From IMG/VR virus record IMGVR_UViG_3300021961_008157: 64,000 bases of DNA; one strand, given 5' to 3'. Below, one piece after another: positions 4,300 to 64,000 of the stretch. Each line of letters begins with the position of its first letter. Within the stretch, counting starts at the first letter, position 1. Under the pieces are notes generated by a model, which made no database searches, was not told the DNA's origin, and was given only the letters and a program-made list of their open reading frames with translations. Both the position numbers and the translations under genes were made by a program. This DNA is from a virus.

Positions 4300-4305
4300 T
4301 TATTG

Positions 4306-4321
4306 TAAATTATTTATGGTG
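4306..4321. repeat. 16-bp direct repeat, copy 2; overlaps tRNA-Leu 3' end
   Basis: identical to 2644-2659. Confidence 0.8.
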
Positions 4322-4399
4322 GGCAAGGAGAGACTCGAACTCTCACTCCGAGGAACTGGCTTCTAAGACCAGCGCGGCTACCAATTACGCCACTTGCCC
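4317..4399 (-). tRNA. tRNA-Leu (TAG)
   Basis: cloverleaf, anticodon loop CTTAGAA, extended variable arm, encoded CCA. Confidence 0.95.
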
Positions 4400-4407
4400 A
4401 TTAGTAT

Positions 4408-4436
4408 ATTGTAGTTGATTTTTTGTAGTTTGTCAA
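4408..4436 (-). promoter_or_regulatory. sigma70-type promoter for tRNA-Leu
   Basis: TTGACA-N17-TACAAT. Confidence 0.6.
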
Positions 4437-4442
4437 GTGTAT

Positions 4443-4516
4443 TGGAGCGGGATACCAGAGTTGAACTGGTGACTTGTCCTTGGCAAGGATATATTTTACC
4501 CCTAAACTAATCCCGC
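4443..4516 (-). tRNA. tRNA-Gly (GCC)
   Basis: cloverleaf GCGGGAT...ATCCCGC-T-CCA, loop TTGCCAA. Confidence 0.93.
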
Positions 4517-4533
4517 TTTCGTTTATTTATTGG

Positions 4534-4609
4534 TGGCTCCTCGACCTGGGCTCGAACCAGGGACCTACGGATTAACAGTCCGGTGCTCTACCAACTGAGC
4601 TATCGAGGA
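4534..4609 (-). tRNA. tRNA-Asn (GTT)
   Basis: canonical cloverleaf, loop CTGTTAA, CCA. Confidence 0.96.
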
Positions 4610-4616
4610 ATATAAT

Positions 4617-4680
4617 TGGTTCGGTTTGTCTGACACTTAACCAATGAACTCTAGAATTCATTACGCTAAATTTCAAACCC
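4617..4680 (-). ncRNA. unclassified 64-nt hairpin RNA ending in ACCA
   Basis: helices GGTTTG/CAAACC, TTAGC/GTTAA, AATGAAT/GTTCATT; 3' ACCA; TAAATA just upstream (4685-4690). Confidence 0.4.
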
Positions 4681-4728
4681 AGGGTATTTAACCCGCGACA
4701 TCAATACACCGAAAGGTTTTGATGCGTG

Positions 4729-4790
4729 TCCTTGATAGCATCACTGCTATTTCGTCCTTGTTACGTTGGACTCATCAGAAGGATAACGTT
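4729..4790 (-). ncRNA. type I hammerhead ribozyme
   Basis: TCCTT-CTGATGA-GTCC(loop)GGAC-GAA-ATAGCA(GTGA)TGCTAT-C-AAGGA: complete core, three stems, AUC cleavage triplet. Confidence 0.9.
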
Positions 4791-4793
4791 GTT

Positions 4794-4868
4794 TGGTGCG
4801 CCCGGGGAATTCCGACATCCCGACCCAGCGATTATGAGTCGCTTGCTCTGCCCCTGAGCTACAGGCGC
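4794..4868 (-). tRNA. tRNA with CAT anticodon, probably Ile2 (lysidine type)
   Basis: anticodon arm AGCGA-CTCATAA-TCGCT resembles Ile2 tRNAs; atypical T-loop GTCGGAA; CCA. Confidence 0.8.
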
Positions 4869-4908
4869 ATATTATAGAAAAGCTGACCGTCAGCTTATAT
4901 ATAACAAA

Positions 4909-4920
4909 TTTTAAAGAACA
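4909..4920 (-). promoter_or_regulatory. boxA-like antitermination element
   Basis: TGTTCTTTAAAA matches rrn boxA GYTCTTTAANA; upstream of the tRNA run. Confidence 0.6.
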
Positions 4921-4994
4921 GTTGCATCAGTATTTTGCCGTTATAGCAAACCTCTCACTCGTTTGAATGACACAGTCACACTCTGACACAAAAA

Positions 4995-5225
4995 TGCTCT
5001 GCGTCCCCCGGCGGTAATTATACTGCATCAACGTAGCCCACAGACAGGACCCACCGCATCACACACAGCCTCCACCCGCTTCCCGACAGGGACCGTTCTC
5101 GCATTGCCAGCGCCGGTTAGGTTGGACCGCATCTTTCGACGTAAGACTATTATGTCTTAGAACCACCCGTGGCTATCACACCACTTCAATCCTCCGGGTC
5201 AGAGTAGCCGTTGATTAAACGGCAC
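4995..5225 (-). ncRNA. large unclassified multi-stem structured RNA (~230 nt)
   Basis: GC-rich with no ORF; closing helices CTCTG/CAGAG, CCCGG/CCGGG, GGTGGTT/AATTACC; internal hairpins including CGTC-GAAA-GATG; consensus promoter directly upstream. Confidence 0.7.
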
Positions 5226-5246
5226 GGTTTTTACTGTCTAAACGTT

Positions 5247-5275
5247 ATTATATAACAAATTTGATTTAATGTCAA
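5247..5275 (-). promoter_or_regulatory. sigma70-type promoter for the ncRNA/tRNA operon
   Basis: TTGACA-N17-TATAAT. Confidence 0.75.
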
Positions 5276-5310
5276 CCGTTTTTGAAGCTGAGGAACCGAT
5301 AAATATTGTC

Positions 5311-52991: not shown

Positions 52992-53699
52992 TTATGCTTT
53001 TAATATATCAACTGTCTTTTTTATTAGACCCGGGCGTATTAAATTTAGCATCAGTGCATTAGCGTGATCATTGTAATCTATAAAATAATGCGAATACACC
53101 CATTTAAATGATTCAGTCGTCCAGCGGGACAAACACGGACTTAATCTTAAAGAATCGCTGTTGTTTTGGAGGAACCGCACAATTGCTCGTTTTTCTTGAT
53201 CAGACAATTTAATTTGACTTAGATAGCTACGATACAAATGCCGGGGATTTTTTAGTTTAACAGAATTTCTTGGGCGATCAATGACCACTTGTTTAAAATG
53301 TACAAAATTAAATTTTACATCACTGGCAGCAATTTCATCAAACAAAGCATGATTATTTGTGTACAATCGCATGTTTCCAAATTCAACAACTAATTTGAAT
53401 TTGTGATTAACAGCAGTTAAAACGTCGCATAATTTGTGCAAGTTAGCAACAGTTTCGTCTGTGATGCGAACCGATGATCTTCCTCTAGAAGGCACCCAAG
53501 ATCCAATGGCGCTGTATTTTTTACGCACGTTCAGAACATGATCAATGTATTTGTGATCCAGACGACGCAAACAAGTAACTTCGTCTATGCCCGCAGTCAT
53601 GCAGTAGCGATACTGATCATAAAACAAACGATCGCTGCCCACGGCAGTAAATTTAGTTAGCGGGACCATTGAGTAAAATATAGCCTTTGCTGTCCACAA
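52992..53699 (-). CDS. hypothetical protein (start uncertain)
   Basis: long ORF overlapping the clpA end. Confidence 0.6.
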   Translation of the reverse strand: MWTAKAIFYSMVPLTKFTAVGSDRLFYDQYRYCMTAGIDEVTCLRRLDHKYIDHVLNVRKKYSAIGSWVPSRGRSSVRITDETVANLHKLCDVLTAVNHKFKLVVEFGNMRLYTNNHALFDEIAASDVKFNFVHFKQVVIDRPRNSVKLKNPRHLYRSYLSQIKLSDQEKRAIVRFLQNNSDSLRLSPCLSRWTTESFKWVYSHYFIDYNDHANALMLNLIRPGLIKKTVDILKA

Positions 53700-55932
53700 C
53701 AGGCAGCGGTGCTGCCAGTGGTTTGATTACAAACATAAGTTCATCATTTACCATGGTTGCTAAAATAGAACAATCTTTAACTTGATCAAACAAAATACGC
53801 TTGCTGAGGGGCACACGAATCAACTCATCAATTTTCCGGCTTAGGGGACGAGCGCCCATTTTGCTATCATAGCCCTTTTCGGCCAGCATGTTGATCACGC
53901 TTTCATCAAACATCAGTTTAATATTTTTATTATACAAACTTTGTTGCAGTTCTCTAGTAAACTTAACAACCACTTTCTTAATAGCCAACTGATCCAGTTT
54001 ATTAAACTTGCAAATAGCGTCAATGCGATTACGTAGCTCAGGTTTAAAAAACTCTTTCATGGCACGATCTTCTTCGCCAGATTTTTCCAACGACTTACCA
54101 AAGCCAATGTTGTTGTTTTCGTTGTCGCGAGCACCGAGGTTAGATGTCATAATAATAATGCAGTTTTTAACATCCACTGTTTTACCACCACTGCTGGTGA
54201 TTCGTGCTTCATCTAGTATCTGCAACATGATGTTGACCACATCCGGGTGTGCTTTTTCAATTTCATCAAACAGGAGCACACTGAAAGGATTTTTAGTAAT
54301 GTCACTGATCAGTTTACCACCACCAACATTACCATCATCAAAGCCCACATAACCCGGGGGCGCGCCAATCAAAGCAGAAACACTATGCCGTTCTTGATAC
54401 TCGCTCATGTCATATTTCAGCAACTCCATGTCAAGATTTTCAGCTAGCAGTTTTGCTAATTCAGTTTTACCTGTGCCAGTGGGACCTAAAAACAAGAAGC
54501 TGGCTACGGGCTTCTTAGGATTGCCAATGCCCGAAAAGTTAATATACACACGCTCAAGAACGGTGTCAATAGCTTGATCTTGGCCATACAAGTATTGCTT
54601 AACATTGTTTTCAAGTTCAAGGATTTTAACACTACGCTCATTTTGTAAACGATCCAGCGGCACACTGGTAACGCGACTAACTTGTCCCATGATCATGTCA
54701 CGGGTAATAGTTACATTGCCTTGATCTTTAACCCGCTGCGCTGCACACGCACCATCAAGCAGATCAATTGACTTGTCAGGATTTTTACGATCGTGAATAT
54801 AACGACGGCTTAGTTCTACTGCTGCTGTCATTGCGTCAGTGTCAATCATTACATTGTGGAATGTTTCCAGTCGTGGGCTAATGCCAATCAGTATTTGCTC
54901 AGTGGTGTTGTCATCAGGCTCGCCTACAGTGACTCTATGGAATCGACGCATAAGTGCGCGATCACGTTCAAATGACTCATAGTATTCTTCCCACGTAGTG
55001 CTGGCAATTACTTTTAAATTACCACTGGTTATAGCGGGTTTAATCATGTTGGCAAAATCTAAACTGCTTTGCCCCGAAGCACCCGCGCCCATCATTGTAT
55101 GTGCTTCGTCGATGAATAGGATACAATTCTTTTTGGTTTTTAGTGCGTTGATTACTTCTTCAAACTTTTCTTCAAACTCGCCGCGATATTTACAACCAGC
55201 CAGCAAGCTGCCAATCTCCACACCCCAAACTTCAGCACCCTTCAAAAACTCTGGCACACGACCTTCGTGTATTTCTTGTGCTAGTCCATCAATGATAGCA
55301 GTTTTGCCCACACCCGGATCACCTACCATTAGCACATTGGCTTTAAACTTTCGAGCCATTACAGTGATTATTTCTTCTAGCTCATCGGTCCGCCCAATCA
55401 TGGGTTCAAGCATGCCTTCGCGAGCATGCTTGCTTAAATTGATACAATGCTTTTCAAGAGTTTCTTGGGCTTTTTCAACAGAAATTTCAGCATCGTTTGC
55501 TTTGGAATTCTTTTGAAAGAATTCAGTGAACTCGGTCTTTCTTACATTGTATTTGAGTAGGAAATAGTGCGAGTGGCTGTTGGTTTCGGCCATTATAGCC
55601 AAATATAAATCTAGTATGGTAATTTGCCGCCGACCAGTGAACAATACTGCTGTCAGGGCACGATTAAACACACGCTCAAGACCATTGGTCTTACGGGGAG
55701 GATCGTCGCGCTCAGTGACTAAACTAGTCTGCGACATTATGTATTGCGTTAACTCTGATTCCAGTTGATCAACTGGAGTGCCAAACTTTTCTAAAATATT
55801 ACGAAAGGATTTTTGCTGCACCATGGCCAGCAACACATGCTCCGTTAGTACATAACCATGTTTTAGTGAAACAGCAATAGTAGTTGCATTAGCGACAATT
55901 TGTTCAATTTCGGGGCTAGGATTGTTTTGCAT
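53653..55932 (-). CDS. clpA: ClpA/ClpB-family AAA+ chaperone
   Basis: Clp-N; GDPGVGKT; FIDEAH; GPTGTGKT; DEIEKAH; GARPL; no ClpB M-domain. Confidence 0.9.
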   Translation of the reverse strand: MQNNPSPEIEQIVANATTIAVSLKHGYVLTEHVLLAMVQQKSFRNILEKFGTPVDQLESELTQYIMSQTSLVTERDDPPRKTNGLERVFNRALTAVLFTGRRQITILDLYLAIMAETNSHSHYFLLKYNVRKTEFTEFFQKNSKANDAEISVEKAQETLEKHCINLSKHAREGMLEPMIGRTDELEEIITVMARKFKANVLMVGDPGVGKTAIIDGLAQEIHEGRVPEFLKGAEVWGVEIGSLLAGCKYRGEFEEKFEEVINALKTKKNCILFIDEAHTMMGAGASGQSSLDFANMIKPAITSGNLKVIASTTWEEYYESFERDRALMRRFHRVTVGEPDDNTTEQILIGISPRLETFHNVMIDTDAMTAAVELSRRYIHDRKNPDKSIDLLDGACAAQRVKDQGNVTITRDMIMGQVSRVTSVPLDRLQNERSVKILELENNVKQYLYGQDQAIDTVLERVYINFSGIGNPKKPVASFLFLGPTGTGKTELAKLLAENLDMELLKYDMSEYQERHSVSALIGAPPGYVGFDDGNVGGGKLISDITKNPFSVLLFDEIEKAHPDVVNIMLQILDEARITSSGGKTVDVKNCIIIMTSNLGARDNENNNIGFGKSLEKSGEEDRAMKEFFKPELRNRIDAICKFNKLDQLAIKKVVVKFTRELQQSLYNKNIKLMFDESVINMLAEKGYDSKMGARPLSRKIDELIRVPLSKRILFDQVKDCSILATMVNDELMFVIKPLAAPLPVVDSKGYILLNGPAN

Positions 55933-58996: not shown

Positions 58997-60286
58997 TTAA
59001 TACCTATAAGTTTCGGCTTTATAAGGACCATTAACATTAACGCTAATATAGTCTGCTTGCTCTTCGGTTAAAGTTGTTAGTACAGCACCAATTTGTTTAA
59101 GATGCAATCGTGCTACTTTTTCGTCTAGCTTTTTAGGTAGTAGATACAACTTGCCTTTTTCGTATGCAGTAGGATTAGTAAACAATTCGATTTGTGCAAG
59201 AACTTGATTGGTAAAACTGTTACTCATAACAAAACTGGGATGCCCTGTAGCACAACCTAAGTTTACTAAACGTCCTTTTGCTAACAAAATAATACGCTTG
59301 CCGTCCGGCCAAATAACATGATCAACTTGAGGTTTAATTTCTTCCCATTGCAAATCTGCTAAGTCAGCAACAGTGATTTCTGTGTCAAAGTGACCAATGT
59401 TACACACAATTGCTTGATGTTTCATTGCATCCATATGCTTCCGTGTAATCACATCTTTATTACCTGTAGCTGTTACAAATATATCTGCTTTATCAGCAGC
59501 ATATTCCATTGTTACAACACGATAACCTTCCATTGCAGCTTGTAGTGCTGTAATAGGATCTATCTCAGTAACCCAAACTTGTGCAGACAGCGCTCTTAGG
59601 GCGGCAGCACTACCTTTACCTACATCACCAAATCCACACACAACCGCAGTTTTTCCAGCGATCATAACATCAGTTGCACGTTTAATACCATCTACTAAAC
59701 TTTCTCTACAACCATATAAGTTGTCAAACTTACTTTTAGTAACAGAGTCATTAACATTAAACGCACGGAACGGAAATGTATTAGCTTCAATACGTTTTAA
59801 AATAGCATGTATGCCCGTCGTTGTTTCTTCACTTAATCCAATAATACCGCCAACAAGCTCGGGATGATGATCAATGATATAGCCAGTTAAGTCGTGCCCA
59901 TCATCAAGAATCATATTAGGAATCCACCCACTGGGCCCAGTTACAGTTTGTTCAATGCACCACCAATATTCTTCTTCTGTTTCACCTTTCCATGCAAACA
60001 CAGGAATACCCATGTCAGCTATCGCAGCGGCAGCTTGATCTTGCGTAGAGAATATGTTACAACTACTCCAGCGTACACTGGCACCAAGTTCCACTAATGT
60101 TTTAATTAATACAGCGGTTTGAATAGTCATGTGCAAACTACCAACAATTCGAGCACCACTTAGTGGTTGTGCGTTTTTGTATTCAGCTTTAATGGCCATA
60201 AGACCTGGCATTTCGTTTTCGGCAATGGCTATTTCTTTATGCCCCCATGATGCTAGATCGATGTTGGCAATTTTGTAATCATTCAT
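58997..60286 (-). CDS. ahcY: S-adenosylhomocysteine hydrolase
   Basis: [39 protein letters not shown]. Confidence 0.97.
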
Positions 60287-62005: not shown

Positions 62006-62654
62006 TTTTTAGACTTTCTAAAAATCTATCAGTTGCATTAGTTTTTACTCCGGTTATTTGTAAAGTAGCTCGTGGTGTATGACCTGCGTTAGCAGTACTA
62101 TGCGGAACATTTAACCAATCAAATGTGCTTACATCTCCAGCATGCCAATGACTCCACATGTAATTACCATAGTTCCAAAAATGGCCCATTTGCCAATCAG
62201 TTAATTGTATAAAGTATCTGACTACTTTAGTTGGATCTTCGGGCATCCATTTTTCTAACTTGTCTAAGTGTAAATTCCATACTTGTCCGGGATGTTGTAC
62301 ATGAATTCTAGTCATAGGCAATTCTAATGCAAACTGATCAGCAATGTCTTGAAACACACGTGGAACGTCATAGTTTAAATCAGTTACAATATAATCCTTA
62401 CTCATGCCATATGATTCTAAATCATATTCTTCTTGATCATACTCGTCTGAGGCACGCACTAAAGAATCGTTAGGCTTACCGCGAGTTCTCCAAGAGACAG
62501 GTTTGGCATTTGCTATTGCAGCTTCTAATTCATTGGTCCAGATTGGTTTAATATGTCCCAACGTTAAAACTGTATCCCATCTTGTGTCAATAACGGCTGG
62601 ATCAAAATGATATTTGCTGCGTGCCTTTGTTATTTCCCAATTACTTTTAGACAT
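61998..62654 (-). CDS. cupin/oxygenase-like protein
   Basis: HLD...PHSTANAG. Confidence 0.55.
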   Translation of the reverse strand: MSKSNWEITKARSKYHFDPAVIDTRWDTVLTLGHIKPIWTNELEAAIANAKPVSWRTRGKPNDSLVRASDEYDQEEYDLESYGMSKDYIVTDLNYDVPRVFQDIADQFALELPMTRIHVQHPGQVWNLHLDKLEKWMPEDPTKVVRYFIQLTDWQMGHFWNYGNYMWSHWHAGDVSTFDWLNVPHSTANAGHTPRATLQITGVKTNATDRFLESLKND

Positions 62655-64000
62655 AGTCTAATCCTCGATTTTTATTTTTTATACTTCTATAAATTATTAA
62701 TACTGTCACAACTACAGTTGTCATGAACAATGGGCGCACAATCAACTGATCCCATGTATACAGTTGTAAAGTTTGTAAAATATAACCTTCAAGTCTTTCT
62801 GCGACCACATAAGTTACCAACAATGCTGGACGGCTAATGTCAAAGTATTTACACGCAATTCCCAACAAGCTAACAATACCAAGCATTGCATAATCTTGCC
62901 AACCACCTGTATATTGTGCATTTGCCCAAATAATAACTGCAAGAATTATAGCAGCATATATCCAATATGGTATTTCAAGAATCTTAACAATGTATCGCAT
63001 AAAGAAAATGCTAACCAGTCCCACAATTAAACTGCCGCCAACAAATCCTCCTGCCAGGCTCCAAATAAAGTTAGTGTCATTTAACAGCGTTGGTGTTCCC
63101 AACTCAATGCCAAAATAAATGCACAGAGCCATCATGATAGCAGCAAATGGTGCTGCTGGAATACCAAACAACACAGTGGGCAACATGCTCGAAACCTTTT
63201 GTGCAGAATTTGCACCTTCACAGCCTAACAATCCTATAGGATTACCGTTGCCAAATTGTTTATCAGGATGTCGGGCCACAGTAGATCCATAGGCCAAAAA
63301 GTCACCAATGGCACCACCAACGCCCGGCAGTAATCCAGTAACAAATCCTATTACACCTCCACGAACCATATCCCATCGATATGTAATACAGTCATTCATG
63401 CCTTGGCGAAGTTGTTGCCAATAATTGTCAAACACAGGGGGGCGATTGTGTCTTGTTTTTAATCCCCACAACAGTTCTGGAATTCCAAACAGTCCCGAAA
63501 TGAGCGCAATCATTTGTACGCCTGCACCCAAGTATTCCCACCCAAATGTAAATCTTGTTGCACCAGTGGCCGGATCTTGCCCAATGACTCCAATGAATAA
63601 TCCCAGGGCAATTGCCAGTACGCTTTTAAAAGGATTTTTGCTTGCAACAAATCCCACACAGGCTAAACTCATTAACATAAATCCAGCAAACTCGGGCATG
63701 CCAAACCAAAGTATAACCTTACCGTATATTGGTAATAATAAAAATGCCAGTGTGCCATAAAACACACCATTGAAGGTACTGTCAAAAATAGCAATGCCCA
63801 TTGCTCTACCTGCTTCACCGCGTTGCGTCATAGGATAACCATCAATGACGCAAGCAGCAGTAGTGCTTGCTCCGGGTATGCCAGTTAATATGCTGGTGTA
63901 ACTATCGGCCGCTGCACAAGCAGCGGTGATGCTGGTTAGAAAAACAATACCAGCATAAGGATCGCTAAGAAAATATGGAGCAAGACCAAAAACAGTAATC
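62647..64000 (-). CDS. tctA: tripartite tricarboxylate transporter TctA (5' end beyond window)
   Basis: frame stays open to the window edge; GIPGA, DGYPM, GLLPGVG, EGANSA, GIP. Confidence 0.88.
   Translation of the reverse strand, partial: ITVFGLAPYFLSDPYAGIVFLTSITAACAAADSYTSILTGIPGASTTAACVIDGYPMTQRGEAGRAMGIAIFDSTFNGVFYGTLAFLLLPIYGKVILWFGMPEFAGFMLMSLACVGFVASKNPFKSVLAIALGLFIGVIGQDPATGATRFTFGWEYLGAGVQMIALISGLFGIPELLWGLKTRHNRPPVFDNYWQQLRQGMNDCITYRWDMVRGGVIGFVTGLLPGVGGAIGDFLAYGSTVARHPDKQFGNGNPIGLLGCEGANSAQKVSSMLPTVLFGIPAAPFAAIMMALCIYFGIELGTPTLLNDTNFIWSLAGGFVGGSLIVGLVSIFFMRYIVKILEIPYWIYAAIILAVIIWANAQYTGGWQDYAMLGIVSLLGIACKYFDISRPALLVTYVVAERLEGYILQTLQLYTWDQLIVRPLFMTTVVVTVLIIYRSIKNKNRGLDYV

Follow-up and report, generated by a model that had tools for sequence, protein, structure and literature searches.

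In the 64,000-nt stretch of viral DNA that we analyzed (IMG/VR record IMGVR_UViG_3300021961_008157; hereafter the window), the minus strand carries, within an operon of RNA genes, a motif whose sequence identifies it as a genuine type I hammerhead ribozyme (4729-4783), with an intact core, three stems and a match to a covariance model. Our preferred reading, to which we give a probability of roughly 0.7, is that the hammerhead is active and forms one self-contained cassette together with a small-RNA gene, in which it acts as a portable maker of 5′ ends. With less assurance, we lean toward the wider view that the cassette is a portable, self-processing small-RNA gene present in many unrelated phages, often in their tRNA arrays, that the 5′-OH aids maturation or stability of the RNA, and that the RNA serves infection in a role of its own, which could lie in translation, tRNA biology, transcription read-through or counter-defence.

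The hammerhead motif and the operon around it

Read on the minus strand, the RNA past the tRNA runs in the order GCGCACCA AACAACGUUA, UCCUU (4783-4779), CUGAUGA (4778-4772), GUCC-AACGUAACAA-GGAC, GAA (4753-4751), AUAGCA-GUGA-UGCUAU, C (4734), the predicted cut, AAGGA (4733-4729) and C. Stem I, which is open, is formed by UCCUU and AAGGA (5 bp), while stem II (GUCC 4771-4768 with GGAC 4757-4754; 4 bp) and stem III (AUAGCA 4750-4745 with UGCUAU 4740-4735; 6 bp) are closed by loops, namely the 10-nt AACGUAACAA (4767-4758) and GUGA, respectively. The core, as read from the sequence, consists of CUGAUGA, GAA, A4750 paired with U4735, and C4734, and it agrees with the published hammerhead core, C3 U4 G5 A6 N7 G8 A9 / G12 A13 A14 / A15.1-U16.1 / H17 (PMC3088659). 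A preliminary description of this DNA had named the same core and stems within 4729-4790 on the minus strand, and its cleavage site is borne out as well: according to the hammerhead consensus, C17 corresponds to 4734, which puts the predicted self-cleavage between 4734 and 4733. The predicted 5′ product would end in a 2′,3′-cyclic phosphate and the 3′ product would begin with 5′-OH-AAGGAC. Folded by itself, an 81-nt stretch around the motif takes the hammerhead as its minimum-free-energy structure; in a 259-nt context, the minimum-free-energy structure is without stem I.

A chance motif is ruled out by counts in shuffled sequences and by a family model. The pattern that combines the core with stem II occurs once in the window, with 0.00-0.01 occurrences expected from shuffles. 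The comparison with hammerhead models that the preliminary description had proposed gave a divided answer: Rfam Hammerhead_1 (RF00163) aligns end to end (26.6 bits, E 1.4e-4 on 301 nt), but the score lies under the gathering score of 34, because the window copy has a long loop II and a long stem III. We also built a covariance model, R1, from a seed of 20 related copies from which the window was left out. Its sole match in the 64 kb is full length and lies at 4680-4794 on the minus strand (77.6 bits, E 1.5e-18), and since the seed excluded the window, this match marks the window element as a true member of the cassette family. An explanation by an open reading frame on the opposite strand was considered separately and rejected.

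The window copy has its peculiarities. Stem I has 5 bp versus 6 bp in the relatives, the sixth pair being A·C because the closing G of the relatives is A in the window, and loop II has 10 nt versus 4-5 nt in the relatives. Loop II contains AACGU (4767-4763), and the 10 nt that separate the CCA from stem I include ACGUU (4789-4785, minus strand), which complements it over five Watson-Crick pairs, a complementarity matched by 60 of 20,000 composition-preserving shuffles. The preliminary description had proposed a pseudoknot between these two segments; the complementarity is present as described, but it is not kept in the relatives, which offer at most 2-4 such pairs, and none of the viral or metagenome contigs scanned by pattern holds a close relative with the same loop II and pseudoknot. 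We therefore speak of a candidate pseudoknot, which is plausible and looks lineage-specific. In other hammerheads, a tertiary contact between loop and tail was shown to be required for fast cleavage (PMC3088659), and the candidate pseudoknot looks like a contact of this type.

These features bear on the possibility that the window copy is inactive or decaying, so that cleavage at a useful rate has been lost and the RNA ends come from host RNases (RNase E, RNase P). The weakening of stem I by the A·C pair, the atypical loop II and the score under the Rfam threshold are compatible with such a loss, and damage to the core (GUAA) is found in other cassette copies; however, in the window every core position of the published consensus is intact, the stems are perfect, and the enlarged loop II finds a 5-bp complement in the flank; such a match seldom arises by chance, and it has the look of a tertiary contact that compensates. 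We consider decay of this copy unlikely.

The operon that contains the hammerhead is headed by a sigma-70 promoter which agrees with the consensus at 12 of 12 positions (TTGACA-17-TATAAT; 5247-5275, minus strand). Between this promoter and tRNA(CAT) lie ~370 nt of non-coding sequence (4869-5245, minus strand), in which Rfam gives no match, and which includes a hairpin with a U run (about 4880-4900) just ahead of the tRNA. The gene for tRNA(CAT), with its encoded CCA, occupies 4794-4868 on the minus strand; it is matched by the Rfam tRNA model (46 bits at 4797-4868), was missed by ARAGORN, and its CCA ends at 4794, 10 nt ahead of stem I. The T arm is aberrant, with a U53·U61 mismatch for G53-C61 and the T loop GUCGGAA, and the anticodon stem-loop, together with the C4-G69 and C5-G68 pairs, presumably resembles that of tRNA-Ile2. 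On the other side of the hammerhead, tRNA-Asn(GUU) (4534-4609, minus strand) begins 124 nt past the cut, and a second near-consensus promoter (TTGACA-17-TACAAT; 4408-4436, minus strand) lies within the array, a short way before tRNA-Leu(UAG). Elsewhere, the minus strand of this phage window encodes unusual auxiliary genes, i.e., a ClpB-like double AAA ATPase (53653-55932), an S-adenosylhomocysteine hydrolase (58997-60286) and a TctA-family transporter protein (62647-63831).

The downstream RNA and its family

Past the cut, the members of the family share a layout of AAGGAC ACGC, a hairpin P1 around ACCUUNNGGUGUA, G(N)CGCG, a short P2 and (A/U)GG, and a third helical domain, P3, sits directly between AGG and (N)RAACCR, where at least 8 different complementary sequences are used. 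In the window, the full-length R1 match covers ACGC right after the hammerhead, P1 with ACCUUNNGGUGUA, and then GNCGCG. P1 bears the family hallmark ACCUUUCGGUGUA (4696-4726, minus strand), with ACC (4715-4717) facing GGU (4708-4710) at its tip, and it is followed by P2, GGGU-UAAAU-ACCC, and then UGG (4682-4694, minus strand). The variable, long-range P3 domain extends over 4617-4680 (minus strand); in it GUUUGA (4673-4678) pairs with UCAGAC (4628-4633), or alternatively GGUUUG with CAAACC, and GG (4679-4680) closes the domain by pairing with CC (4623-4624), an AAA bulge intervening. The tail motif is present as AAACCG (4622-4627) with a second copy, GAACCA (4617-4622), both on the minus strand and 107-117 nt past the cut, where the RAACCR tail of the family lies at 105-175 nt; the 3′ end of the small RNA is likely at this tail, at about 4617. 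The minimum-free-energy fold of the 117-nt downstream stretch reproduces the P1-P2-P3 layout (z -2.7). Rfam offers no family for the downstream RNA, neither for the window copy nor for those of 11 related loci, and its only match within the RNA of the window is a weak one on the P1 hairpin (COG2908, 16 bits). Some copies have possible extra pseudoknots (5′ GACAC with GUGUC; CGCGGG with CCCGC), which are not alignable family-wide.

The helices covary across the family. In the 20-sequence seed, 98% of the cells pair and 13 pairs are altered on both sides, values which none of 500 shuffles reaches. When the set is widened to 48 copies in an alignment that was itself fitted to the model, 97% of the cells pair, with 33-45% pairing in slid controls, and both-side changes are found in 20 of the 25 modelled pairs. 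By helix, such changes affect 6/6 pairs of stem I, 3/4 of stem II, 5/6 of stem III (14 of 16 for the three ribozyme stems together) and 6/6 of the lower part of P1. The wider set takes in a second subfamily with stem I CUGUCU/AGACAG, as well as single copies with GUGUAA/UUACAC and GACACA/UGUGUC. Most relatives were collected by patterns that fix the letters of the core and stem I, and hence the invariance of these letters within the main subfamily is partly an artefact of collection. P1 and P3 are kept through many compensatory changes and the joining segments are invariant, which points to selection on the fold of the downstream RNA.

In total, we find roughly 45 relatives of the window locus; the pattern scans of viral and metagenome contigs that yielded this wider family returned no close relative of the exact window copy. 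Judging by their names, several of the contigs may stem from lake water. The DNA polymerase places the phage among jumbo phages, with 50% identity to that of Sinorhizobium phage Phosso and 47% to that of Agrobacterium phage Atu_ph07. These two phages, the closest by DNA polymerase, have no cassette, and neither do 21 loci that share the neighbouring ORF 2144-2641 and possess large tRNA arrays; because of these absences, we regard the cassette as patchy in distribution, and it probably moves between phages. A BLAST search of isolated phages with cassette sequences yielded nothing above noise and no cultured carrier, and complete E. coli genomes gave no match to the one query used there, a cassette of the CUGUCU/AGACAG subfamily (L032). 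In another contig of the family, a permuted tmRNA gene (L147:1-272, minus strand; RF04321, 136 bits) lies ~8 kb from the cassette.

The partner of the ribozyme

What becomes of the neighbours of a type I hammerhead depends on the side of its cut. After cleavage, the 5′ product retains the catalytic body and the 3′ product receives a 5′-OH (PMC3088659; PMC6765202); since the cut is made at the 3′ side of the ribozyme itself, in the window the body would remain on the tRNA as a trailer, and it is the downstream RNA that would obtain the 5′-OH. The association of ribozyme and downstream RNA is also seen when the latter is searched for by itself. A pattern that describes just P1 and the sequence flanking it, and contains no letter of the hammerhead, retrieved 9 viral contigs, 8 of which have a complete hammerhead upstream; in the ninth (L227), the contig end cuts the hammerhead, and its 3′ half is kept. 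A tRNA is a less regular neighbour: a same-strand tRNA ends 0-10 nt before stem I in 5 of the 42 unique cassettes, the window included (the other four begin 0-9 nt past the tRNA end), and a same-strand tRNA lies within 500 nt in 11 cassettes and in none of the remaining 31. By a rough estimate, rather than a computed value, 11 of 42 looks far above random placement, and some link of the cassette to tRNA biology may exist. Across the loci, we counted 191 unique hammerheads; all 5 that start within 15 nt past a tRNA end are cassette copies, and none of the 191 closely follows a tRNA without the downstream RNA. Judging from these contigs, the constant partner of the ribozyme is the RNA downstream of the cut and not the tRNA. 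In the compact arrays (L032, L145, L186, L222, L181 and the window), the next tRNA begins 116-138 nt past the cut, and in four other cassettes it is 190-243 nt away.

Several loci show variations of this arrangement. In six of them (L144, L151, L161, L230, L246 and L248) the hammerhead starts where a DUF932 (phrog_1221) gene stops, at its UAG codon, e.g., L151:2699-3637 (minus strand); neither DUF932/phrog_1221 nor the small ORFs of no assigned function beside the non-tRNA cassettes give a functional hint. Two copies (L181:8485-8652 and L186:9393-9560, both minus strand) have GUAA for the GAAA of the core and an insert of ~58 nt in loop III, and the downstream RNA is intact. The ribozyme has probably decayed in both, and the combination of a damaged core with an intact RNA suggests that an active ribozyme may in some cases be dispensable for the downstream RNA. 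A third locus (L175:2085-2255, minus strand), judged by its flank and its R1 match, looks like these two.

Two further loci, L060 (8399-8525) and L064 (6483-6756), each contain a type I hammerhead that is predicted to cut exactly at base +1 of tRNA-Tyr(GUA), with stem I doubling as the acceptor stem; this arrangement would represent ribozyme-made tRNA 5′ ends in phages. As in the window, the setting is a phage RNA-gene array and the cut would fix where the RNA of the next gene begins, but there the downstream gene is a tRNA, whereas in the window it is a structured RNA other than a tRNA. The position of the cut at +1 suggests that the hammerheads of phage RNA-gene arrays act on behalf of the gene behind them.

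HDV-like ribozymes have a nested double-pseudoknot fold and cleave at the 5′ edge of the ribozyme itself, a geometry that would release the 3′ end of a tRNA. HDV-like theta ribozymes have been proposed to process tRNA 3′ trailers in gut phages (Kienbeck et al., 2024, PMC10879173), and the preliminary description had pointed to this precedent; by analogy, the hammerhead of the window would mature or release tRNA(CAT) without host RNases. Both are small self-cleaving ribozymes directly after a phage tRNA gene, and the distance of 10 nt past the CCA in the window, the four other cassettes at 0-9 nt, the 11 of 42 cassettes located in tRNA arrays and the theta precedent itself all speak for trailer processing. 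However, no HDV-type Rfam match is found in 4300-5300, and the window ribozyme has a different fold, that of a hammerhead, and the opposite cut side, so that it is unable to release the tRNA at its 3′ end: with the cut 60 nt past the CCA, the tRNA would retain a folded ribozyme with a cyclic phosphate, for the removal of which host endonucleases would still be needed. Moreover, a tRNA neighbour is optional in this hammerhead family, unlike for theta ribozymes, with 31 of the 42 cassettes lacking a same-strand tRNA within 500 nt, hammerheads after tRNAs always come with the downstream RNA in our set, and phage relatives with 20-30 tRNAs are wholly without the cassette. We consider a role in trailer processing quite unlikely, and the analogy with theta ribozymes holds for position only. 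Of the related proposal that the hammerhead splits the polycistronic precursor independently of host RNases, one half survives: the predicted cut would split the RNA and provide the downstream part with a 5′-OH, but the tRNA would still depend on host nucleases.

That the cassette is instead a transcript insulator or the footprint of a mobile element, i.e., selfish or neutral DNA whose cut merely separates segments and whose downstream RNA is functionless, is very improbable, since its patchy occurrence (absent from Phosso, Atu_ph07 and the 21 neighbour-gene loci, present in unrelated contigs and in contexts as varied as DUF932 stop codons) is set against the compensatory changes in P1 and P3 and the invariant joining segments, which indicate selection on the fold, and against the lack of a nuclease or integrase gene alongside the cassette in the loci inspected.

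We thus return to the reading of an active hammerhead within a portable cassette, and propose the following course of events. Host RNA polymerase would transcribe the operon from the consensus promoter (5275-5247), and the hammerhead would fold once AAGGA, the 3′ strand of stem I, is made, possibly aided by the 5-bp pseudoknot between loop II and the spacer. Cleavage after C17 (4734), which we infer to take place in vivo, would detach tRNA(CAT) together with the ribozyme body, ending in a cyclic phosphate, and would give a structured RNA of ~115 nt (4733 to about 4617) a precise 5′-OH end, AAGGAC, from which its maturation or stability may benefit. RNase P acting at tRNA-Asn (4609), perhaps together with exonuclease trimming, would set the 3′ end of the small RNA. 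The built-in ribozyme would let the small-RNA gene work at any insertion site, whether after a tRNA, after a stop codon or elsewhere.

Relation to known ribozymes and phage RNAs

The window ribozyme shares its core, its three stems and the open stem I with the type I hammerheads of bacteria, prophages and phages (RF00163, clan CL00010; Perreault et al., 2011, PMC3088659). The phage setting of those hammerheads and the cutting of polycistronic transcripts suggested for them also match the window, in which the pseudoknot is a candidate. The fusion of the ribozyme to one conserved downstream RNA and its place inside a tRNA operon appear neither in that work nor in a later review (PMC6765202), and our full-text literature searches returned no account of a hammerhead within a phage tRNA array, nor of a cassette of hammerhead and small RNA. 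What is new, as we read these sequences, is the conserved partnership with a downstream RNA, which is undescribed for this known class of ribozyme.

Small RNAs of unassigned function among phage tRNA genes have a counterpart in the stable RNAs C and D (species 1 and 2) of the T4 tRNA cluster. T4 rnaC (L263:1388-1526, minus strand; species 1 RNA) contains GAGUAGCG twice and UAACCGG, words that recur in some cassette tails (L145, L143 and L154). We nevertheless rejected rnaC and rnaD as homologues: the likeness is confined to short words, the local structure is different, and they have no hammerhead and no P1 hallmark.

The purpose of bacterial and phage hammerheads has been open since their finding in 2011. 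According to a 2019 review, most of them were still functional orphans (PMC6765202). The family described here links one lineage of hammerheads to one conserved product, a folded small RNA that starts at the predicted cut site. It also illustrates that the cut side of a ribozyme tells which neighbour it serves, and that ribozymes adjacent to phage tRNAs are not all trailer processors. If the cassette is indeed a portable gene, it would give phage and bacterial hammerheads a concrete and testable job.
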